Below, one piece after another: positions 13,867 through 34,030 of a DNA stretch of 46,965 nt. The DNA comes from an uncultured Acidimicrobiales bacterium (GTDB taxonomy: Bacteria > Actinomycetota > Acidimicrobiia > Acidimicrobiales > SHLQ01). A program made the translations under genes and the position numbers. The DNA is taken from contig CALHXU010000205.1 in NCBI GenBank assembly GCA_938040365.1, forward strand, positions 1-46,965. The letters are read 5' to 3'. Each line of letters opens with the position of its first letter. Position 1 is the stretch's first letter. The notes below the pieces were generated by a model. The model had not been told where the DNA came from. It did no database searches and worked only from the letters and a program-made list of their open reading frames with translations.

Positions 13867-16800
13867 TTAGAGGTCCATGACCTCGGTCAAACGTTCGACC
13901 AGTTCGGGGGCTCGTTCAAAGCCAATGATGCACTGATCTTCAGGGAGGAAGTGGACGCCCTCGATCGTGACGACCTCAAAGTTGACGTCGCCATGAAGCT
14001 CGCGCCACGGGTCGACCGTCACTGCGTTCGATGATTCGCTCGCGCTGACATAGATAACTCGGATGCTCTGTTCGTCTGGCCTGTACTTCGCTGCGGCACG
14101 CCGGATTACCGGACCGAGCTGGCGCTCGGCGTCGGTAAAGCTTGGGGTCTGTCCCGACGCTCGAGCATTGCGGTAGCGACGGCGAGCAAGCGCAAAGTCA
14201 ACACGTTCATAGGCCCGCCGGGCACTTTCAGAAGCGACGGCCTTTGCGCCGTCGTTGCGAAGCATGTCCTGGTATTTTTCACGGATCGTTCCGGTGTCGT
14301 CTACCCGCAATCCCGCCATGACGGTGTCGACGAGTACAACCGCTTCGACCTGATCGCCCCGGGCGGTGAGCAGGCGCGCTATCTCCCACGCCAACAACCC
14401 TCCGGTCGACCAGCCAAGAAGACGATACGGGCCGTTCGGTACGGCGGTATCGAGCGCGTCGAGCATCACGGCGGCTTGACCTTCGATCGAGTCGACGATC
14501 TCGCTGCGAGCGTCGGCGCCGGGAAGCCTGAGTCCGACGACGGGAATGTCCGAGCTGAGCGAACGAACGAGTGGTGCATAGCGCAGGAGGTTGCCGCCAC
14601 CGGGTGGCAAGACTACTAACGGACGTTGGGTACCGGTCGCTCGAAGCCACTCGACCAGCTCGTCGGTGTCCGGTCGACTGGGCACTGCGGGCAACGGGGA
14701 GTCTGCGGGCCGCGAAGTTCCGACCCCGAACCGTTGATTCGCGAGCAGTTGAGGTGTCGGAGCATCGATCAGCTCGCCGATCGCCACCCGCTTTCCAAAC
14801 TCGGCTTCGAGCATTGAGACAACCGCTACCGCTCGCAGCGAGTCTCCCCCGAGCTCGAAGAAGTCACTCGTTGACGTGACCTGCTCGCCATCGAATGCTG
14901 CGCTGAAGATCTCAACGATCTTTTGAACGACTTGGTCATCGTCTGCGCTATCGACCAGCGCTATCGACGCGTGTGCTGGCGCCATTGAGGCAACGCTCGT
15001 AATTGGACTGTCCAAAGCGGCAGTGTCGAGCGCATTGCGGTCAAGTTTCCCATTGGTGTTGCGGGGAAGTTCTCGAACGATGCGGATCTGTCGTGGCAGG
15101 TGACTCGCCGGAAGAACCATCGCTGCACGTCGGCGGAGTTCGGCTGTATCGAGCCGCTCCTCAGCACCGCGCATGGGTTCGATGTATGCGATCAGACCGC
15201 GATCTGTCGCTGCGACCAAGCAGGCCTCTACACCGTCGAGGTTGGTGAACGCGACTTCGACCTCACTCGGTTCAAGGCGGACGCCACCGACGGACAGTTG
15301 ATCATCGATCCGCCCAAGAAAGTCGATCGACCCGGAGCCACGTCGGACGACCAAGTCGCCTGTCAAATACGTCAAATCCCCGTCGATCGAACCAAAACAT
15401 TCTGACTCGTCATTATCCTCGGTCGAGATATAGCCGTTGCTGATCCCGGGTCCGGAGAGACGAAGCTCACCTGCGACATCGATCGGTGCCGGTGTGCCCG
15501 TGGTATCGATGACCTCGACGGTCATTCCAGGGATCGGAGTGCCAATGGGCACCGAGAAACGCTCACCATCGCGGGGCGTGCACCGATGCACGGTGGCCCA
15601 CACCGTGGCTTCGGTGGGCCCGTACTCGTTGATCAGCTGTGTCCCAGGAAGTGCGGTGAAGTGTGTATCGATGATCGACGGTGGACAGGCCTCGCCTGCG
15701 ACTATGACGACGTCGAGCCCGGTCAATGCACCAGGGTCACGCTGCAACATTGCGGCGTACACCGATGGCACCATGAGGCCATGGGTGATGTCATGGTCCG
15801 AGATGAGCTCGGTGAGCGCATCGATATCGTGCACCTCGCGTTCGCTTGGAATGATGAGCTCGCCGCCATCCGCGAGCGTCCAGAACAAGCCGGCGATCGA
15901 GGAATCAAACGCCGCGCTCGAAACGAGCAGGTAGCGAGCAACCGGGCGGTCGTACCACTGTCGGCGAGCCCGCACGGACGCTTCGAGGTTGCGATGCGAG
16001 ATCGACACACCCTTTGGGCGTCCGGTAGAGCCGGAGGTAAAGATGACGTACGCCTCGTCGTCTGGTCCGGCAAAATCGGTTTGAACGAGCGGCAGAATTC
16101 TAGGGTCGGGAACGTCGACGAGCACGGTAGGAACCTCGGATAGTCCGGGGTGGCCAGCGCCTGAAGAAACAGCGGCCTGAACGCCAGCCGCCGAGATGAG
16201 CGCGGTGAGTCGTGAGGCCGGCTGGGAAATGTCGATCGGAACGTAACTCGCGCCGATCATCCACGTTGCATAGATCGCCGGAATGAGATCCACCGAACGT
16301 TCGAGGCAGAGCGCGACGCGGTCGTTTGACCCAACGCCGATAGCCCGAAGCCGAGCAGCGATGACTCGGGCCCGCTCGTCAAGGTCTCGATACGAGATGG
16401 AGGTCCCGCCGCTCGATACGGCTTTCGCGTCTTGACCGTTTTCGATCGACGCCGCAATGAGTCCTGCAACCGGCTGCTCGGAGCCGACGAGGGGCACTCC
16501 GGCCAAGGGTGCCGGCGCCGAGTAGAGGTCGGCAACGGTCGAGTCTGGTTGGGTAGCGACCATGTCGAGAGCAGCCGAGAATGCATCGAGCAGAAGTTTT
16601 GCTTGGGCTCTGCTCACGACCGAACCGCGGTACTCGACGCCGAGTTCGACGCGTTCGGCGCGCAACTGGACGAAGAACGTCAGATCGTTGACGGCTGTTC
16701 CAGACGCCAGGATCGTATGGTCGACGACCTCGCCATCGAGTTTGCTCGGCGCGAGGTCTTCGACCGCCAGCATGACCCGACCACTCGGAGGTTCAACTCC

Positions 16801-19800
16801 TCGCTCTCGTGCAGAAGAAATGACCTCACCAAAAGGCACCGCTCGATGTTCGAGTGCCGTACTGAGCTCATTACCGGTACGTAGCGCAAGTTCTCTGAGC
16901 GAGGTATGCCGCTCGACGGGCAAGAGCAGTGGCAGCGGATTAAGGAAGTAGCCAACGACGTCTTTGATCAACGGGTGATCTCGGACCGACGAGGTCACGT
17001 TCAACTCGATGTTGGGTCCCTCATGGAAAGAGCGAAGGCCAGCGGCGAGCGCGGCGAGCGCATTGCCAAACAGCGTTGGAGCCGGTGCCTGACGCAGTTG
17101 AGATGTCGTTACCGAGGCTTCGCGGTGAAGGTATCCATCGGCCTCTGGCGCCTCGGTACGGACACGAAGGTTTGAGAGCGGAGCGCCCGGTGCCCACAGC
17201 TCCTCTGGGCGTGTTGGACGACTCGCTTGCCACGCGCCGTGCTCTGCGTACGTTATCGCGAGGGGCGGCAGCGGCTCGCCGCCGTAGGCAAGATCGAGCT
17301 GTTCCCAGAAGATATCGAGCGACCCTGCATCGCTCACGATGTGATGTGTGCGAAGAAGGAGGCCGCGTCGGACCGGACCCTCGGGACTGGCGCCCGAGAG
17401 GAAATGCGCCGTGATCAAGGGCCCATGCACGAGGTCGAAGGGCACATCGTTGAGCTGTTCGGCAAGTGCGGTTAATGGCGCGACGGTCGACTCAAAATCA
17501 CCGATCCGAAGCGCATCATCAACATCGAGCTGTGCCCGGTCGATGCCATAGGAGGTATGGAGCGTCGGTTGGTGCGCCACCACGGCACGAAGTGCCGCAT
17601 CGAGGCGGTCCCGATCGAAGGTGTCGGGCAGCTCGTAGAGTCGTGCGACGTTGTAGCGAGGGTCGGTCGGGTCCCGGCGCCATTCGTAGAGCATCGCTGC
17701 TTCACCAGCTGAGAGCGGCGCCGCAACGTCGCTCCCTAACGTCGGGATCGCAAAATCGGGTGCACTGCTGGTGTTCGTCGCGCCGTGATCTAGTTCAGCG
17801 AGGCGCTCCTCGACGTACCGGGCGAGGTCAGAAACGGTCCGCTCCTTGAACGCGAGGGATTCGGGGATGATGATTCCGAAGTGGTCGCTGATCCGCACGA
17901 TCATCTCGAGCGCATGCAGCGACGTCCCACCGAGGGCGAAGAAGTCGTCGACTGCGCCAACTTCGGGAAGTCCCAGCACCGAGGACCACACCGATGCGAT
18001 GTCTTTTTCAACGGTTCCTGCAACCGAACGTCCGGTGCGCGTCGCAACGGTTCGCCAAATCGATGGAGCAGGAAGCGCGGCGGAATCAACTTTCCCGTTT
18101 GCGGTGAGCGGGATTTCGGGCACGACTTCGATCGCTCGGGGGATGGCGTGGCTTGGCAACTCGTTTGCGAGCGCGGCCTCGACGAGCGCGGCGTCGAAAT
18201 CAGCTGATGCCTCAACCCAGAGCGTAAGAACCTCAGGCTTCTTTGGCTCGTACCCGACCTCAGCGAGCATCGAGGTAATCGCCGCCAATTCTTCGTCGTC
18301 CATTGGGTCGTCGAGTTCGAAGAGTGCCTCTTCTCGCGTCTTGTGACCGAGGCGAACATCCCAGCTATAGGGAGCTGCATAGTTGTGATGCTGTTGTTCC
18401 ATCTTGTGCACGAAGATGCCAGCCGAGTTGATCAGACAGTTGGTCGATCGACCCGAGTCCGGCGGGCGCTGCCAGGTATTGCTCGCTTCGAGCGCCGCGT
18501 ACATCTCCGAGAGTGGCACGTCGACGTACCGGTAGATGTCAATGAAGGTAATGCGGTCGAAAATCTCGGGGTCGGCGAGGAACTCGACGTCCATGTTCTC
18601 CGAAACCGCGTCGGGCGTCGTGTGGTAGACGTGGCGTGCCTGTCGCACCATCTCGTCGATCGCGTCCGGATCGAAACGATCCTCGCCGAACATTTCAGGG
18701 ACGAGTCGGGTCTCGAAGAACTGTCCGCGCGACAGACCGGTAACGATCGCGCCGATTCCTAACTCCTCGGCTTTCGCGAGCGCGATCGTGTAGATCGCCT
18801 TGTAACAGCCGTTGCAAACGTTCGAGAAGCGCTCGAGGCTGTCTCGGAAGATGTCGTTCATCCCCTCGACTGTGACGAACTCGTGGTCGACGCCGAGCGC
18901 CTCGGTAGCCCGGCGAACGTTTGCCTTTGCCACCTCGGCAATAAAGCCATTGTCGAGGGTTATCGCAAAGACGCGCGCACCCATCTCGACCAGCTTGTAC
19001 ATGGCATACGTCGAGTCCTTGCCCCCTGAGATGAGGTGGATGACGTCGTAGTCTCCGGTCGACCGAGCACGAGCGTCGGCGAGGACTTCGGCGAGATCGT
19101 CTTCGTTTCGGAACCATGCCTCGGCTTGTGGTGCAACCAGTTCGAACTGGTGACAGCTGCTGCATACGCCGTCGCCGTCGATGACGACGTCGGGCACATC
19201 GGATGGCAGCCCACAACGAACACAGTGTTCGACCGCGGGCTTCGCCGTTGGTGTCCAGAGGCGAGTGACCGCGCGGGCAACGCCGGGAACCGACTGGGCC
19301 ACAAACTCGATCTCGCCGGGTTCGAGGCGGATGCCGCCGACCTTGATCTGCTCATCGACTCGTCCGAGGTACACCATCTTGTTGGCGTCGGCCATTCGAG
19401 TGAGGTCGCCGGTCTTATACAACACGTCGGCGCTACCCGATTCGGGAATGACTGCTAGACGTTCCACACTCAGGTCGTCTCGACCGAGGTAGCCAGCGGT
19501 CATTCCTGGGCGGGAAATATGGAGTTCACCGGGAACTCCGAGGGGAACGGGGTAGCCGAACCGGTCGAGGATATGGAGTCCAACACCGGGGGCTGGTCGT
19601 CCAATAGGAACCTCCGGGCCGTTGTCGTGCTCGGGGTCATAAAGGTGGACCATGCAACCAACGACCGCTTCGGTCGGGCCGTACTCGTTGTAGATCCGAA
19701 GCGACGGGCCACATTGCTCCAAGAGACGGTCGGCGAGGTCGACCATGAACGCCTCGCCACCGACGATCAGACCCGAGAGCCCTTCGAGCTTGTTGCGTTC

Positions 19801-21837
19801 GCCGAGCATGCGCACGAGGAGTTCGAGATGTGACGGCGTTGCCTTCACCAGGGTTGCGAGGCCTTGGTCGACAATCTCGCCAAGCGCGGCCAATCCGCCC
19901 TCGGGGTGGATGGTCATCAGGCCACCAGAGAGCAGCGGCAGGTACAGCGTGGTGATCGTGAGATCGAACGACAGCGACGTAAAGAGTGGCATCGTTGGCG
20001 ACTCACGGTCGATGTACGTCGAGTACGCAAAGCCGAGATATTCGCCCAGCCCTTCGTGGGTAATCGGCACGCCCTTTGGCATACCGGTCGATCCCGATGT
20101 GTAGATCACATAGGCGAGGTCGCTTGGCCTTTGCACGAACGCGGCCGGTTCGGCATCGACCACCGGGAGCGAGTCGATGTCGCTGCGAGCCGAGACAACG
20201 AGCTTTGCGTGTGAGTCGGTGCGAATGTGCTCGCGACGAGCTTCGGGGTAAGTCGGATCGATCGGCACAAACGCAGCACCCGCACGTTGAATGCCGTGAA
20301 TGATGCACACCGCCTCATGGGAGATGCCCATCTCGACACCGATGAGGTCACCGGGTCCGTAACCAGCGCGCCGAAGATGCGTTGAGATTGCCTCGATCTC
20401 CTCATCGACTTCACGAGCGGTGAGCGTCTCGCCATCAGCGGTTCGGATCGCTGGCCGATCACCATGCATCATCAATCGCTGGCTGACAACACTCGGTACC
20501 GCACCATCGATTGGCGTCCCACCACCGGGGTGAGTGAACGGTTCTAAGAGCAGTCGTTCGTCGTCGTCGAGCAGTGAAATCGACTGCACCAAACGGTTGG
20601 GATCATCGAGCATGGCATCGAATACCGCAGCGATGTGATGACGAGCGCGCTGTCGATGACCAGAATTGCCGGCCGCATGATTGATGTCGACGCCGAGTTC
20701 GATAACACCGGTGTCGTCATAGTCGAGCGCCTGGATTCGAAGCAGGTGGTGTTTGTCGACATGGCCCGGGTGAATCCACGACGTCGTTGCATCGATGGTG
20801 CCAAAGCTGCCCATTCGTGCGCCCTGTACGTTCAGCACGATGTCGAACGACTGACGCGGGCTCGTCCCAGGTAGCGCATTGCTGAGCAGCGTGAAGAAGG
20901 ACCGGGCGATCTTCTTGTGGAGCGTCGCAAACGAATCGTCGTCAGCGACCTCGATCCGCAATGGGAACAGCTCGACCAGCGGCCCAATGACAGCTTTCGA
21001 AGCTTTGGTCGACCGGTGATGGATCGGTACGCCAATCGTGACCGTGTCGTTGCCGAGCCGAGCGAGATAGCTCGCCGTCATCAGCGCTAGCCCTGCTGCC
21101 CGGCTGAGTTCGGGGCTGAGCAGTTTGAACCGAGGATCATCGACGAATGCGTCGAACTTGTCTTGCCGACCGGCCGACATGTCGATGTAGACGCGCTCAG
21201 CGGCCGACGTTGCTTCACCCGCGGTGTAGAGCTGTGTGGCTTGCGGCTCGGGTTGTATTTCCCAATAGTCGCGAGCTGAGGTCAACCGCTTCGGGTTCAC
21301 CCCCGCAATGAGATCTGACCACACCTGCTCGTAGCTGTCGAGCGCTACTGAACGACCTTCGTATTCACTCGCGACTGCGTTGAATAGGTTCGCTGAACTA
21401 CTGGCATCGATCACGAGGTGGTGCACGTTCATGAACCACGCCCAGTCGTCATTACCAAGATCGATGAGCACCGATTCATAGCTCGACTTCGCAACGTCGA
21501 GCGGTTGGGCAATTCGCTCTGCCACCCACGCGTCGAGGTCGTTCGGGTCAACCCGAGTGACAGCACATGGTGCCGGCGGCGCCGCCGAAATCGTCGGGTG
21601 CGGCACACCGTCAACATCGCGCACCAGCGTGCGCAGACAGTCGCTTTGTGAGACGACGGTATCGACCGCAGTAAGGAACTTCGCCGGATCGATAGGCGAA
21701 CCGAAGCGAGTCAGCAGCGCCATGTTTTGGTGTGGCGACGTTGGTTGTAGACGCTGCGAAGTCCAGATCAGCTCTTGGCTCGGTGAAAGCGTGCGTCGAG
21801 GTTGTAGCTGAACCGATTGCGACATGTGTTCACGCAC
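13867..21837 (-). CDS. Bimodular NRPS C-A(Asn, interrupted by PP-loop/AMDH-like domain)-T-C-A(His-like)-T-TE
   Basis: HHLVIDA and HHIVSDA (C); YTSGSTG/FTSGSTG, NEYGPTE, TGDL, NGKV/LD (A x2); FFALGGTSL and FFELGGDSL (T); GWSTGG (TE); SGGKDS insert; ATG 21825 is an alternative start. Confidence 0.95.
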   Translation of the reverse strand: MREHMSQSVQLQPRRTLSPSQELIWTSQRLQPTSPHQNMALLTRFGSPIDPAKFLTAVDTVVSQSDCLRTLVRDVDGVPHPTISAAPPAPCAVTRVDPNDLDAWVAERIAQPLDVAKSSYESVLIDLGNDDWAWFMNVHHLVIDASSSANLFNAVASEYEGRSVALDSYEQVWSDLIAGVNPKRLTSARDYWEIQPEPQATQLYTAGEATSAAERVYIDMSAGRQDKFDAFVDDPRFKLLSPELSRAAGLALMTASYLARLGNDTVTIGVPIHHRSTKASKAVIGPLVELFPLRIEVADDDSFATLHKKIARSFFTLLSNALPGTSPRQSFDIVLNVQGARMGSFGTIDATTSWIHPGHVDKHHLLRIQALDYDDTGVIELGVDINHAAGNSGHRQRARHHIAAVFDAMLDDPNRLVQSISLLDDDERLLLEPFTHPGGGTPIDGAVPSVVSQRLMMHGDRPAIRTADGETLTAREVDEEIEAISTHLRRAGYGPGDLIGVEMGISHEAVCIIHGIQRAGAAFVPIDPTYPEARREHIRTDSHAKLVVSARSDIDSLPVVDAEPAAFVQRPSDLAYVIYTSGSTGMPKGVPITHEGLGEYLGFAYSTYIDRESPTMPLFTSLSFDLTITTLYLPLLSGGLMTIHPEGGLAALGEIVDQGLATLVKATPSHLELLVRMLGERNKLEGLSGLIVGGEAFMVDLADRLLEQCGPSLRIYNEYGPTEAVVGCMVHLYDPEHDNGPEVPIGRPAPGVGLHILDRFGYPVPLGVPGELHISRPGMTAGYLGRDDLSVERLAVIPESGSADVLYKTGDLTRMADANKMVYLGRVDEQIKVGGIRLEPGEIEFVAQSVPGVARAVTRLWTPTAKPAVEHCVRCGLPSDVPDVVIDGDGVCSSCHQFELVAPQAEAWFRNEDDLAEVLADARARSTGDYDVIHLISGGKDSTYAMYKLVEMGARVFAITLDNGFIAEVAKANVRRATEALGVDHEFVTVEGMNDIFRDSLERFSNVCNGCYKAIYTIALAKAEELGIGAIVTGLSRGQFFETRLVPEMFGEDRFDPDAIDEMVRQARHVYHTTPDAVSENMDVEFLADPEIFDRITFIDIYRYVDVPLSEMYAALEASNTWQRPPDSGRSTNCLINSAGIFVHKMEQQHHNYAAPYSWDVRLGHKTREEALFELDDPMDDEELAAITSMLAEVGYEPKKPEVLTLWVEASADFDAALVEAALANELPSHAIPRAIEVVPEIPLTANGKVDSAALPAPSIWRTVATRTGRSVAGTVEKDIASVWSSVLGLPEVGAVDDFFALGGTSLHALEMIVRISDHFGIIIPESLAFKERTVSDLARYVEERLAELDHGATNTSSAPDFAIPTLGSDVAAPLSAGEAAMLYEWRRDPTDPRYNVARLYELPDTFDRDRLDAALRAVVAHQPTLHTSYGIDRAQLDVDDALRIGDFESTVAPLTALAEQLNDVPFDLVHGPLITAHFLSGASPEGPVRRGLLLRTHHIVSDAGSLDIFWEQLDLAYGGEPLPPLAITYAEHGAWQASRPTRPEELWAPGAPLSNLRVRTEAPEADGYLHREASVTTSQLRQAPAPTLFGNALAALAAGLRSFHEGPNIELNVTSSVRDHPLIKDVVGYFLNPLPLLLPVERHTSLRELALRTGNELSTALEHRAVPFGEVISSARERGVEPPSGRVMLAVEDLAPSKLDGEVVDHTILASGTAVNDLTFFVQLRAERVELGVEYRGSVVSRAQAKLLLDAFSAALDMVATQPDSTVADLYSAPAPLAGVPLVGSEQPVAGLIAASIENGQDAKAVSSGGTSISYRDLDERARVIAARLRAIGVGSNDRVALCLERSVDLIPAIYATWMIGASYVPIDISQPASRLTALISAAGVQAAVSSGAGHPGLSEVPTVLVDVPDPRILPLVQTDFAGPDDEAYVIFTSGSTGRPKGVSISHRNLEASVRARRQWYDRPVARYLLVSSAAFDSSIAGLFWTLADGGELIIPSEREVHDIDALTELISDHDITHGLMVPSVYAAMLQRDPGALTGLDVVIVAGEACPPSIIDTHFTALPGTQLINEYGPTEATVWATVHRCTPRDGERFSVPIGTPIPGMTVEVIDTTGTPAPIDVAGELRLSGPGISNGYISTEDNDESECFGSIDGDLTYLTGDLVVRRGSGSIDFLGRIDDQLSVGGVRLEPSEVEVAFTNLDGVEACLVAATDRGLIAYIEPMRGAEERLDTAELRRRAAMVLPASHLPRQIRIVRELPRNTNGKLDRNALDTAALDSPITSVASMAPAHASIALVDSADDDQVVQKIVEIFSAAFDGEQVTSTSDFFELGGDSLRAVAVVSMLEAEFGKRVAIGELIDAPTPQLLANQRFGVGTSRPADSPLPAVPSRPDTDELVEWLRATGTQRPLVVLPPGGGNLLRYAPLVRSLSSDIPVVGLRLPGADARSEIVDSIEGQAAVMLDALDTAVPNGPYRLLGWSTGGLLAWEIARLLTARGDQVEAVVLVDTVMAGLRVDDTGTIREKYQDMLRNDGAKAVASESARRAYERVDFALARRRYRNARASGQTPSFTDAERQLGPVIRRAAAKYRPDEQSIRVIYVSASESSNAVTVDPWRELHGDVNFEVVTIEGVHFLPEDQCIIGFERAPELVERLTEVMDL
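18245..19240 (-). other. Inserted adenine-nucleotide alpha-hydrolase (PP-loop) domain within A1, AlbIV/CysH AMDH-like
   Basis: Lies between A8 (GRVDEQIKVGGIRLEPGEIE) and A9 (LPSHAIP); CVRC..CSSC, SGGKDS (19012-19029), TLDNGF, CNGC, STNC; boundaries approximate. Confidence 0.8.
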
Positions 21838-28121: not shown

Positions 28122-28160
28122 CTGCGAGTAACAGCGCTAGCTGCGAGTAACAGCGCTAGC
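28119..28160. repeat. 19-bp tandem duplication TAGCTGCGAGTAACAGCGC (x2.2)
   Basis: Copies at 28119-28137 and 28138-28156, spanning the stop codons of two convergent genes. Confidence 0.85.
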
Positions 28161-29082
28161 CGCGCATGAGGCGGATCAAGAGTTCGAGGTCGCTCTCCGT
28201 TGGTTGGGCAGCGACGGTCGACCGGGTTGAGATTCCAGTCTCGAGAACGGCGAAGGCCTCGGCGAAGTCTCCTGCACCGGTCGCAAAGTCAGGCGCTGCA
28301 GCCGATGGCCACCAGGGAACATTGCCAGCGATCCCTCGCTGCCGACGCCACTCGTCGCGTTCGTCATTCGAGTTGAACTCGACGTCGATGGCGTGACCCA
28401 ATTCGTGAGCGAACACGCGGTGAATCGTTTCTGGAGTGTCGTCGCTACGGATGTAGATAACGATGCGTTTCTCGCCGGGGTAGGTCAGGCCTCGGATGCC
28501 TGCTCGTTCTCCTTCGAACTCGATTACCCAGTCGGGAAACGCTGACCGCCAGTCGAACTCGACCAGTTCGAGCATCCGTTGGGCCTTCTCTTGATTCGTC
28601 AGCGACCGGGAGATCGTGGTTGTGGGCGCAGATGTCGTCGTAGGTGCAATCGTCGTCGTCGCTGGCGGCACAGTCGTTGGCGGCACCGTGGTTGGCGGCA
28701 CAGTCGTTGGCGGCACTGTGGTCGCTGGCGGCACTGTGGTGGTTGGCGGCACGGTGGTTGGCGGCACGGTGGTTGGCGGCACGGTGGTCGCTGGGGGCAG
28801 AGTCGTTGGCGGCGGCTCGAGCGCTGTCGGCTCCTCGGTTGGGGTGGCTGACGTCGACGTCGTGGCATCCACGGACACGCCAACTGCCGAGAGCAGCTCT
28901 TCAAAGACGAATGGGCCACTTTGCGATCGTTCCTCGAGTGGAAGCTGCAACGCTGCAGAGACCGGCTCGAGGACGGTCGCCGATACTGCAGCACCGGCCT
29001 CTGGGTCGCCTGAAACCCGTGGGAGAAGGGCGAACAGTCCGCACAGCAGCAGCGCTAGAAATGCCCTCGGCCCAAACTTCAC
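28156..29082 (-). CDS. Secreted protein with (PPTTV)n linker and C-terminal HEXXH zincin-like domain
   Basis: Hydrophobic N-terminal signal; PPTTV/PPATTV repeats at about 28660-28810; VFAHELGHAID and GDFAEAF. Confidence 0.75.
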   Translation of the reverse strand: MKFGPRAFLALLLCGLFALLPRVSGDPEAGAAVSATVLEPVSAALQLPLEERSQSGPFVFEELLSAVGVSVDATTSTSATPTEEPTALEPPPTTLPPATTVPPTTVPPTTVPPTTTVPPATTVPPTTVPPTTVPPTTVPPATTTIAPTTTSAPTTTISRSLTNQEKAQRMLELVEFDWRSAFPDWVIEFEGERAGIRGLTYPGEKRIVIYIRSDDTPETIHRVFAHELGHAIDVEFNSNDERDEWRRQRGIAGNVPWWPSAAAPDFATGAGDFAEAFAVLETGISTRSTVAAQPTESDLELLIRLMRG

Positions 29083-29212
29083 GTCACTTGTTTTAGAGCC
29101 CCGAGCGCGGCCGTGCCAACGCGGAATGTGGCAAACGCTGCGTTGTAGCTCACGTGAAGTCGAGCTCGGCGTTCCCGGATTGTTCGCTCGCAGACCCGAC
29201 GGTCATGGCTCG

Positions 29213-29569
29213 CTAACTGAGCAACTCTCTGATTCGTTCCTTGGGCCGGCCAATGATCGCCTTCGTGCCAGCCACGACGACAGGGCGCTGCAGCAGTGCC
29301 TTGCGTTCGACCAGCAGATCGACAACCGCTTCGGGGTTCCCGACATAGTCGTCGGGGTTCAACTCGAGCTTCTTGAATTGGCTGTCCTTGCGGACCAAGT
29401 CCTCGACGGGGTCTTCGAGGATCGACACGATGTGCTCCAACGTTTCCCGATCGGGTGGCGTCTTCATGTACAAGACGGTTTCGGCATCCACGCCCAATTC
29501 CTCGGCGACCGCCAAGGCATTCTTCGAGGAACCTCAATGAGGGTTGTGATAGATCGTTACGTCAGCCAT
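29213..29569 (-). CDS. arsC: ArsC/Spx family arsenate reductase-like selenoprotein (Sec at codon 12)
   Basis: ATG 29569 gives MADVTIYHNPH-TGA-GSSKNALAVAEE in frame with the 29213-29515 ORF; TGA (29534-29536) sits at the ArsC catalytic Cys of IYHNPxC; LLQRPVV..IIGRP C-terminus. Confidence 0.85.
29500..29517 (-). promoter_or_regulatory. Putative bacterial SECIS hairpin
   Basis: CCUUGGC-GGUC-GCCGAGG stem-loop; apical loop begins 23 nt after the UGA. Confidence 0.75.
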
Positions 29570-29625
29570 GTCCTCACCCTAGAGGGAGGCGAACTCACGG
29601 TGCGAACTAGGCGAGCGCGAGCAAC

Positions 29626-29973
<348 letters not shown>

Positions 29974-31251: not shown

Positions 31252-32097
31252 ATGTCTCTCTATCCGCCAGATGACGTCGACATCATCGATCTTGACGATC
31301 TCGACCGCAACCAAGGCGGAAACCGGCGGCGTCCACGCTCGTCGACGCCCCCACCACCGCGGGGATCAAACCTGCCCGCCGCCGATCCTCGAATCCTCGT
31401 TCCGGTGTTCTTATTCGTCGTTGCGCTGCTCCTCATCGGCCTCGCCTGGCGGTCACGGGGCGGAAGCGAGGAATCCGACGTTGCGATAGCGGTAAGCACC
31501 GAACTTTCTCAGGCGGTGCGCGACGCTGAACTTCGTGCAGGGTTCGACGGGTTGGTCGTCGAAGAGATCGACGGCGTTCTGGTCATCACTGGACGCGCTG
31601 CAAATGCCACCGATGTCGCAGCGATCGGCGCCGTTGCGCGATCGGTTGAAGGATCTCAGCGGGTCGACAATCGTGTCACCGTTGAGGGCGGGTCGATAGA
31701 CACACCGTTCCCTGCGACCGAGTCTCCTCTCACCAACGGTGGAACCGACCTCGCAGGACAATTGAATAGCCTCGGCCGGATCACGTTCCAAGCAGGAAGC
31801 TCCGATCTCACAAGCGAGGGCACCATCGTTGTCGACAACGTTGCGCGCCTCATGGAGCAGAGTCCTGGTGTCAGAATTGAAGTGCACGGCCACACCGACT
31901 CCGACGGTGACGAATCGGCAAATCAGGTACTGAGCCAACAACGGGCCCAAGCGGTTGTCACGGCGCTGAGTCAGCGGGGCATTAACAGCGCCCGGCTCGT
32001 CGCTATCGGTTTTGGCGAACTCAACCCAATCGCTCCCAACATTACCGAAGATGGGCGAGCCACGAACCGCCGAATCGAGTTCGTAATTCCGCAATAG
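31252..32097 (+). CDS. Membrane-anchored BON + OmpA-C (peptidoglycan-binding) protein
   Basis: Single TM; BON-like segment ending RVDNRVTV; ITFQAGSSDL, VHGHTDSDG..NQVLSQQRA, GFGE.NP, NRRIEF. Confidence 0.9.
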   Translation: MSLYPPDDVDIIDLDDLDRNQGGNRRRPRSSTPPPPRGSNLPAADPRILVPVFLFVVALLLIGLAWRSRGGSEESDVAIAVSTELSQAVRDAELRAGFDGLVVEEIDGVLVITGRAANATDVAAIGAVARSVEGSQRVDNRVTVEGGSIDTPFPATESPLTNGGTDLAGQLNSLGRITFQAGSSDLTSEGTIVVDNVARLMEQSPGVRIEVHGHTDSDGDESANQVLSQQRAQAVVTALSQRGINSARLVAIGFGELNPIAPNITEDGRATNRRIEFVIPQ

Positions 32098-32431: not shown

Positions 32432-34030
32432 ATGGCTGATAGCCGACCACCGAAACCGGGTCGACTGAGTTCCGATACGCTCGCTCGCGCCAGATCTGGG
32501 GACGTCGAAGTCTTCGAGACCGCAAATTGGTCCCGCTCTGCGCTCATGCGAGGAAATGGCAGGGGCAAAGAACCCCTTGGCAAGACGAATTGGGCGGTGT
32601 GGTGGTGGCTCGCTCCACTTCTCTTCATCGCCTTTGCGATCGGGGCGCTGTTCTGGGGCGTCAATCGGATTCAGAACTCGCTCGAATCATCGGCAGCCGG
32701 AATCTTGGAAAATGCCGGGATCAGCGCAGAGGGCCTCGAATTCGACGCCTCGTACCGCGACCTCGAAGTCACGGGCGAACTTCCCGCAGGCGTAAGTGCC
32801 GAACAGATCGAAGAAGCACTCGAATCTGACGACTCGAGCTCGTTCGACGTGCGCAACGCGACCGTTGTCGCTGCGGCAGCGGTCGTCGCTGCTCCCGAAC
32901 TCGCTGCGATCGACGTAAGCGCGACCTCAGATGGTGAGGCGATCACCTTGATCGGAACCGTCCCATCACAAGAGCACGCCGACGAACTCATCGCCGCAGC
33001 CGAATCCACAGGGCTCCCGGTCGACTCGACGGGGCTCACCGTTGCGGGCATCGACGCGAGCTCTGATGATCCTGATGGTCAAATCGAAAGTTACAGCGCG
33101 CTTCTCGGCTCGCTAACTGCTGGGAGCTTCACCGCGGCAAACCTCGCGATTGGCGATTCTGGACCGGTCACCGGCGAGATCACCGCAGTCGACGAGGGTG
33201 TCGCGGGCGAACTTCGCCCGGTCGTTGGCAGCGATGTCGACGTGACGGCACCTGCAACGCTGGGAGCGATCGACACCTCGGTCAACTTCGACGGTGAACG
33301 GATCGTGCTCGACGGCACGGTGCTTAGCCAGGAACAATCCAACACGCTCGAGACCGCCGCAACCGAGGTTGTGGGCGCCGGCAATGTCGTGAACAACCTT
33401 GCGATCTCCGGCCTCGATGAAGCGGTTGCTGGTGCAGACGACCGAGTCGCCGCACTCGCAGCATCGATCAGCACCTTTGACGGACTGCAGTCGGCAGACG
33501 CAACCATGAACGACACCGATCTTACGATCAACGGTGTCGCGAGTGATGAAGCTGGCCAGCTGCTCACCAGCGACACAACGGCTGCTGCCGAGGACGCAGG
33601 GCTTAGACCGGGCGGGGCAATCACCTTGCCCGAGGCTCCAGGCCTTGCCGAACAAATCGACCTTCTTCAACAAGAACTCGACGCACTCCAAGAGGAGATT
33701 CGAGAGAACGTCGTGTTCGATACGAACACCGCCGACCTCACCCCGACAGCGATCGGAACCTTGGACAAAGTCGTTGCTGCTATGCAACGGTATCCGCTGC
33801 CGGTGGTCGAAGTCGGAGGACACACCGACTCTCGAGGCGCAGACGACTTGAATCTGGCGCTCTCGCAAGCTCGTGCCGACTCCGTATCGGCCTACCTGGG
33901 TCAAACCGTTGAACCCGCCCGTCTCTCCGCCAACGGATTTGGAGAGACCCAACCAATTGCTGACAACACCACCGAAGAAGGTCAGCAAGAAAACCGCCGA
34001 GTTGAATTCATCGCAAAAGAAAGCTTCTAA
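32432..34030 (+). CDS. Multi-BON + OmpA-C protein (ArfA/Rv0899-like architecture)
   Basis: GGAGGAG RBS; TM helix; repeated BON-like units (ITLIGTVPS, IVLDGTV..VVNNLAI); VGGHTDSRG..NLALSQARA, NRRVEF. Confidence 0.88.
   Translation: MADSRPPKPGRLSSDTLARARSGDVEVFETANWSRSALMRGNGRGKEPLGKTNWAVWWWLAPLLFIAFAIGALFWGVNRIQNSLESSAAGILENAGISAEGLEFDASYRDLEVTGELPAGVSAEQIEEALESDDSSSFDVRNATVVAAAAVVAAPELAAIDVSATSDGEAITLIGTVPSQEHADELIAAAESTGLPVDSTGLTVAGIDASSDDPDGQIESYSALLGSLTAGSFTAANLAIGDSGPVTGEITAVDEGVAGELRPVVGSDVDVTAPATLGAIDTSVNFDGERIVLDGTVLSQEQSNTLETAATEVVGAGNVVNNLAISGLDEAVAGADDRVAALAASISTFDGLQSADATMNDTDLTINGVASDEAGQLLTSDTTAAAEDAGLRPGGAITLPEAPGLAEQIDLLQQELDALQEEIRENVVFDTNTADLTPTAIGTLDKVVAAMQRYPLPVVEVGGHTDSRGADDLNLALSQARADSVSAYLGQTVEPARLSANGFGETQPIADNTTEEGQQENRRVEFIAKESF

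Follow-up and report, generated by a model that had tools for sequence, protein, structure and literature searches.

A gene of the ArsC family on the minus strand of contig CALHXU010000205.1 (46,965 nt; assembly GCA_938040365.1, uncultured Acidimicrobiales bacterium), the whole of which is called the window, very probably encodes a genuine selenoprotein, in which selenocysteine (Sec) would be inserted at an in-frame UGA, and was placed in the published 'arsenate reductase, UxxS' family; this degree of confidence excludes the substrate. Recoding of the UGA is indicated by the alternation of TGA with Cys among homologues, by a conserved and covarying hairpin downstream, by purifying selection both before and after the TGA, and by the presence of Sec machinery in the genome, all of them features read from sequence. 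The selenoprotein family has been known since 2005, and the find confirms, and does not extend, existing knowledge.

Comparative evidence for recoding

The full coding sequence (CDS) occupied 29213..29569 (minus strand) and comprised 118 codons and a TAG stop, with the ATG start at 29569-29567 and the stop at 29215-29213. Eleven sense codons (MADVTIYHNPH) preceded an in-frame TGA at 29536-29534, codon 12, which fell in the catalytic Cys column and opened the motif U-G-S-S (29534..29536, minus strand). Reading the TGA as U gave a product of 118 aa with the N-terminus MADVTIYHNPHUGSSKN; a plain listing of open reading frames showed just a 100-aa frame starting at TTG 29515. The positions that an earlier note on this DNA had given for the ATG, the TGA, the hairpin and a TAGGGT hexamer all held on the minus strand.

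A six-frame protein search of 40 relatives and the window's own genome returned 35 matches in 32 of the 41 genomes. Twenty-eight copies from 25 genomes contained a TGA, and were made up of 23 orthologues from the same genus, two orthologues from other genera and three paralogues. An orthologue with exactly one TGA was found in 22 of 24 same-genus species (73-88% identity), and two further genera within the order likewise had one-TGA orthologues, at 63% and 58% identity. The three paralogues (44-49% identity) had one TGA each, and seven more distant homologues (31-45% identity) were free of stops. The TGA fell in one and the same column in all TGA copies (28/28), and that column held Cys in all stop-free homologues (7/7), which is the Cys/TGA alternation that the earlier note had proposed to look for. 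Among public homologues, true Cys forms reached up to 71% identity.

Both the TGA and the motif U-G-S-S were invariant in the 23 genus orthologues. Upstream of the TGA, codons 2, 4, 6, 7 and 8 each encoded a single amino acid with two to four codons in use. As these upstream codons conserve their amino acids and vary synonymously, translation appears to start at ATG 29569 and to pass the UGA. Purifying selection acts both before and after the TGA. Codon 11 (29537-29539), a His codon immediately 5' of the UGA, was CAT in 23/23 orthologues, and that of His8 was CAC in 22/23; the fixed CAT at codon 11 may reflect a codon-context constraint on Sec decoding.

The three paralogues (L053, L054 and L055, from genomes G009, G001 and G004) formed a second Sec-ArsC group with the motif U-G-K-A. 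Second TGA copies were also present in genomes G257, G312, G188, G136 and G233. With the present query, the paralogous group was not found in the window's own genome.

A hairpin resembling a bacterial Sec insertion sequence (SECIS) was located within the CDS at 29500..29517 (minus strand), across codons 18-23. It consisted of a 7-bp stem with the 5' arm CCUUGGC (29517-29511) and the 3' arm GCCGAGG (29506-29500), closed by the apical loop GGUC (29510-29507); the stem began 16 nt and the loop 23 nt downstream of the UGA. A SECIS with a GGUC loop had been claimed in the earlier note, and a conserved SECIS-like hairpin was indeed present in the genus orthologues: the minimum free energy fold contained the stem and the GGUC loop in 23/23 orthologues, with one pair broken in one of them (L038). 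RNAalifold on the 23 orthologues returned exactly these seven pairs as the sole consensus structure. In the alignment of all 28 copies, in which the three paralogues were out of register and mostly counted as unpaired, 90.8% of cells were paired, against 28.1-66.3% with the partner slid by one to three columns, and none of 500 shuffles matched the observed pairing or covariation score.

Codon usage within the hairpin was constrained in the orthologues. Codons 18, 20, 21 and 23 (GCC, GCG, GTC and GAG) were identical in 23/23, the third positions being fourfold degenerate in Ala18, Ala20 and Val21 and twofold degenerate in Glu23; the flanking Gly13, Ser14, Ser15, Leu25 and Gly26 used three to four codons each. 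The sole paired variation was a change of Leu19 from TTG to TTA together with a change of Ala22 from GCC to GCT (4/23), by which two synonymous substitutions converted a G-C pair into an A-U pair. In a gene tree built without the hairpin codons (327 columns, of limited resolution), one of the four A-U genomes (L047) was placed outside a 21-row clade (support 95/96) that contained the other three, so that the compensatory change arose at least twice.

In the paralogues, the GGUC loop was retained on a different stem (GGGGC/GCCCY core) and lay 17 nt downstream of their UGA. Between L053 and L054, one stem pair differed on both sides (A-U and C-G, respectively). A GGUC-loop hairpin was absent from the corresponding place in the seven Cys homologues. 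The other-genus orthologues (L051 and L052; genomes G028 and G035) had other hairpins there, with no GGUC loop.

The SECIS of Escherichia coli fdhF is a stem-loop that lies within the CDS shortly 3' of the UGA and has an apical loop of the GGUC type. The present hairpin resembled it in location and loop, and differed in its plain helix of 7 bp, which contains a U-G wobble internally and lacks a bulged base. It also fits, as judged from its sequence, the published description of bacterial SECIS, in which a stable stem-loop follows the TGA and carries a small guanosine-containing apical loop, as given in the accessible text of PMC1088965.

Many contigs of other organisms in four marine metagenome runs matched the window at ≥90% identity only over a 70-nt stretch (29499-29570), and diverged on both sides of it. 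At the nucleotide level, the N-terminus and the SECIS are far more conserved than the remaining gene.

The window's own genome, a draft assembled from a metagenome (3.63 Mb, 277 contigs, 90.7% complete), contained the Sec machinery that the earlier note had taken to be implied. A tRNA-Sec with anticodon TCA scored 63.6 bits (gathering score 47), SelA 386.3 bits (cut-off 267.9), SelB, adjoining SelA on the same contig, 266.1 bits (cut-off 242.25), and SelD 258.8 bits (cut-off 125). SelD was the C-terminal part of a 726-aa protein (contig C108, L026:298-2478, plus strand) with an N-terminal Pyr_redox_2 (pyridine-nucleotide-disulphide oxidoreductase) domain, and is the already described Ndh-SelD fusion, which marine samples commonly contain according to the text available of PMC2398784. 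SelA was above its cut-off in 23 of 24 TGA-bearing relatives, the lone exception being a 73% complete genome; genomes with only the Cys form (n = 7) had SelA in five cases and lacked it in two.

In the mechanism proposed, the UGA at codon 12 would be recoded as Sec. Selenophosphate supplied by the Ndh-SelD fusion would be used by SelA to make Sec-tRNA(Sec), the 7-bp GGUC-loop hairpin starting 16 nt downstream would act as a bacterial SECIS, and SelB bound to it would deliver the Sec-tRNA(Sec).

Protein family, active site and substrate

The read-through product matched Pfam ArsC (PF03960) at residues 7-115 with 57.5 bits (cut-off 24). Its top NCBIfam model was TIGR00014 (glutaredoxin-type arsenate reductase), with 96.6 bits obtained with C standing in for U. 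The best relatives of solved structure were 3rdw (E 1.4e-19) and R773 ArsC (1jzw/1i9d; E about 5e-16). In the structure-sequence alignment, the UGA column coincided with Cys12 of R773 ArsC, the Cys of the IYHNP-x-C motif; this and the Cys of all seven stop-free homologues bear out the placement of the TGA at the ArsC catalytic Cys in the earlier note. Residues R60, R95 and R108 aligned with three Arg of R773 ArsC (1jzw alignment), presumably the catalytic ones, and were conserved in all 28 Sec copies.

Compared with R773/E. coli ArsC (1i9d, 1jzw), the protein aligned over its full length, shared the IYHNP-x-C/U motif and had Arg at the three active-site columns. It differed in having Sec instead of Cys at residue 12, in its length (118 aa vs. 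140-141 aa) and the absence of the C-terminal tail, and in being encoded outside any ars operon. Spx/MgsR regulators shared the ArsC fold and weak homology (PDB Spx chains, E 3.7e-7 to 8e-4); identity with them was rejected, as the TIGR01617 score of 53.2 bits was under the cut-off of 75.05 and the protein had no CxxC, lacking the second motif Cys, and kept the arsenate-reductase arginines.

Among published families, the closest counterpart was 'Arsenate reductase' (COG1393), introduced from the Sargasso Sea as a new selenoprotein family of 14 sequences with the motif UxxS and a SECIS shown (Zhang, Fomenko & Gladyshev, 2005, Genome Biol 6:R37, PMC1088965). The 2008 Global Ocean Sampling (GOS) survey (PMC2398784) has ArsC 1 and ArsC 2 among the marine selenoprotein families, a 2026 review (PMC13188914) separates 'Arsenate reductase, TIGR00014, UxxS' from 'Arsenate reductase-like, NF041106, UxxC', and the BLAST example in a database paper of 2026 is an arsenate reductase-like protein. 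The window's protein agreed with the UxxS family in having COG1393/TIGR00014 as its best model, in the fit of U-G-S-S to UxxS, in its marine metagenome setting, and in a downstream stem-loop with a small guanosine-containing apical loop. No feature distinguishing it from that family was found in a comparison by motif and description with the accessible parts of these sources; the window's clade may be ArsC 1, ArsC 2 or a sister group. NF041106 is likewise an ArsC-related selenoprotein; identity with it was rejected, as the motif was UxxS and not UxxC, and as no match to it was obtained at E up to 0.01 with the window's protein or at E up to 1e-5 with three other Sec copies.

Most probably, the Sec12 selenolate would attack an oxyanion, which by homology would be arsenate, and the reduced product would then be released in a thiol-dependent step. 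Selenolate chemistry at an ArsC active site with its arginines kept is a well-grounded prediction. Arsenate itself, as predicted by homology, has an even chance of being the substrate. The MshC-like (mycothiol ligase-like) and mycoredoxin-like matches in the genome were below their cut-offs (430.3 vs. 485.1 bits and 71.7 vs. 89.5 bits, respectively).

A genuine selenoprotein with a physiological substrate other than arsenate, that is, an ArsC-fold redox protein whose selenol would act on a different oxyanion or a thiol/disulfide target, is a possibility to be taken seriously, if held tentatively. The neighbourhood contained no ars genes, and instead held PII, a Tag glycosylase and unknown proteins. 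In the 90.7%-complete genome, the best ACR3 score was 39.7 bits (cut-off 282.8) and ArsB had no match, which weakens a reading of the gene as one of arsenic detoxification; at this completeness, a pump may be unassembled. The TIGR00014 score was under the cut-off of 106.05, and so were the scores of relatives (88-105 bits), including the Cys form L056 (105 bits), so that the whole clade lies below the equivalog cut-off. The functions of these selenoproteins are called largely uncharacterised in the available portion of the 2026 review (PMC13188914). On the other side, all 28 Sec copies retained the Cys12 column and the three R773-aligned arginines, arsenate reductases and not Spx supplied all the best matches by family and by structure, and the gene order was common to one genus only and may reflect recent common descent.

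Alternatives to recoding

Several points weigh against recoding of the UGA as Sec. Insertion of Sec and binding of SelB to the hairpin are predictions from sequence. Folded on its own, the 61-nt stretch reached -22.8 kcal/mol (z -1.82) and was equalled or surpassed in stability by 9 of 200 shuffles, which is only weakly better than chance, so that the case for the hairpin rests on the comparative evidence, in which the L038 orthologue had its one broken stem pair. An Rfam scan of 29100-29700 (E up to 10) gave three chance-level matches (psaA, mir-145 and P4) and no SECIS family, a null result that says little, since bacterial SECIS elements are poorly represented in Rfam. The runs listed as containing this stretch comprised four metagenome DNA runs and no RNA run. 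The four, in which the assembly was checked, came from one study and were examined as contigs (10, 20, 8 and 4 pieces), and two of them were possibly the source of this DNA.

A pseudogene, created by a nonsense mutation of a Cys codon and yielding at most an N-terminally truncated protein from TTG 29515 or ATG 29467, is very improbable. A single base change would turn TGC or TGT into TGA, and gene callers report exactly such truncated products; these products would lack the catalytic residue. The TGA recurred in 28 copies with identities as low as 44% and in 93 of the 150 matches listed for the order, the 11 upstream codons were under selection at the amino-acid level, and a dead gene would have no use for a conserved, covarying hairpin.

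An assembly or sequencing error with TGC or TGT as the true codon, named in the earlier note as what could overturn its reading, is scarcely credible. The draft genome is metagenome-assembled and in 277 contigs; the independently built contigs of the four runs gave no sign of such an error. They showed no alternative letter at the TGA (29534-29536), though alternative letters were seen nearby, within the gene only at 29528, 29531 and 29540 (third positions of Ser14, Gly13 and Pro10), and a 625-nt contig of run X3, which was not flagged as a possible source, covered 29100-29558 with no differences. Assemblies of 24 further species from the order likewise had TGA in that column.

Genome-wide reassignment of TGA to an ordinary sense codon (e.g., Trp or Gly) is just as hard to credit: W stood at the Sec column in five full-length entries printed among the best 120 of 4419 public matches with E up to 1e-10 (P0002, P0004, P0009, P0011 and P0020, close homologues on short metagenome contigs), apparently as an artefact of a TGA=Trp code chosen by the gene caller for short contigs, yet the PII gene upstream ends in TGA, from which it follows that TGA is not reassigned genome-wide, the SelA, SelB and SelD matches had no internal stops, the column alternated with Cys and not with Trp or Gly, and a dedicated tRNA-Sec with anticodon TCA was present.

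Gene neighbourhood, public annotation and prevalence

The PII nitrogen-regulatory protein gene was the upstream neighbour (29626..29964, minus strand; Pfam P-II, 111.1 bits), and its TGA stop lay 56 nt upstream of the Sec-ArsC start, where PII homologues end. The other neighbours encoded an unknown 345-aa protein, an exported Pro/Thr-rich protein and the Tag glycosylase. PII was upstream in 23/23 orthologue loci of the genus, and among the 20 loci with long flanks the 345-aa protein was present in all and the C-terminal domain of the Pro/Thr-rich protein was downstream in 19. The 300-nt flanks of the other-genus orthologues L051 and L052 showed no PII, and its linkage may be no more than a gene order that close relatives share.

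The exported protein (28156-29082, minus strand; 308 aa) had a hydrophobic N-terminus read by eye as a signal peptide, a long Pro/Thr-rich repeat and a C-terminal domain with HELGH, and no Pfam match; it may be an uncharacterised secreted metallopeptidase. Farther away, 13867-21837 (minus strand) encoded a 2656-aa non-ribosomal peptide synthetase with two Condensation, two AMP-binding and two PP-binding domains and a thioesterase, and with a weak ThiI/QueC-like (PP-loop ATPase) match between the modules (residues 931-1039). Two adjacent proteins with BON and OmpA domains were encoded at 31252-32097 and 32432-34030 (plus strand); after them came a coiled-coil protein of 718 aa containing helix-hairpin-helix motifs.

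The hexamer TAGGGT (29576..29581, minus strand), 6 nt before the ATG, resembles a -10 element and may be the promoter of a leaderless transcript. The earlier note had called it a -10; the hexamer was present as described, but only five of the 23 orthologues had TAGGGT or TAGGCT at 6-7 nt before the start (L028-L031, which are the window and the three relatives nearest to it, and L042). Most of the other orthologues had a purine-rich, Shine-Dalgarno-like stretch upstream, and some starts lay only 10-15 nt after the PII stop. A leaderless transcript is possible in the window's subclade. The wider proposal that Sec-ArsC in this genus does not serve arsenic detoxification, is fixed directly downstream of PII and, in the window's subclade, has its own -10 and a leaderless mRNA is speculative and rather unlikely.

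Automatic gene calling reported the window's gene as a fragment of 84 aa starting at Met35 and without the active site (29213..29467, minus strand; P0040, 100% identical over 71% of the query). Many of the best 120 homologues were 100-101 aa long (85% of the query), those printed starting with MAVAE, the equivalent of TTG 29515 (e.g., P0007, P0012 and P0077), and both kinds of call agree with the truncation by standard callers that the earlier note had expected. True Cys forms among the best 120 were four printed entries with 62-71% identity. Where source names were given, they were 'arsenate reductase', from metagenome-assembled genomes of Acidimicrobiia or Acidimicrobiaceae. On the opposite strand, a 381-aa open frame (28616-29761, plus strand) without a Pfam match spanned the whole Sec-ArsC gene and parts of its neighbours; it is most likely a shadow open reading frame typical of G+C-rich DNA, and could mislead gene callers.

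In a survey of the order (an even draw of 300 genomes plus the window's own; E up to 1e-8), 185 of 301 genomes had a match. Of 150 matches listed, 93 had one TGA and 57 had none, and a further 40 matches were beyond the listing; the best 65 matches all had a TGA. The 93 one-TGA matches lay in 88 different genomes, so that at least 88/301 carried the TGA form, the column position of the TGA being confirmed for the 28 aligned copies and not for all survey matches. The description of Sec-containing ArsC-like proteins as uncommon in the earlier note thus fails in this lineage.

With the TGA form in about three in ten sampled genomes, the selenoproteins of these marine bacteria are routinely under-reported: the gene is mis-called publicly, either as fragments of 84-101 aa that lack the active site or as forms with W in place of Sec, and close Sec homologues are hidden in databases as apparent Trp variants. 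The GGUC-loop hairpin, on different stems in two paralogous groups, represents a lineage-specific SECIS pattern that could be used to find further selenoproteins. If the message were leaderless, SelB and the SECIS would have to recode a UGA with just 11 codons between it and the 5' end of the mRNA, the start codon included. Either such decoding of Sec without a leader or a non-arsenic substrate for a widespread marine selenoenzyme would, if true, go beyond what is described in the accessible text of the papers cited.

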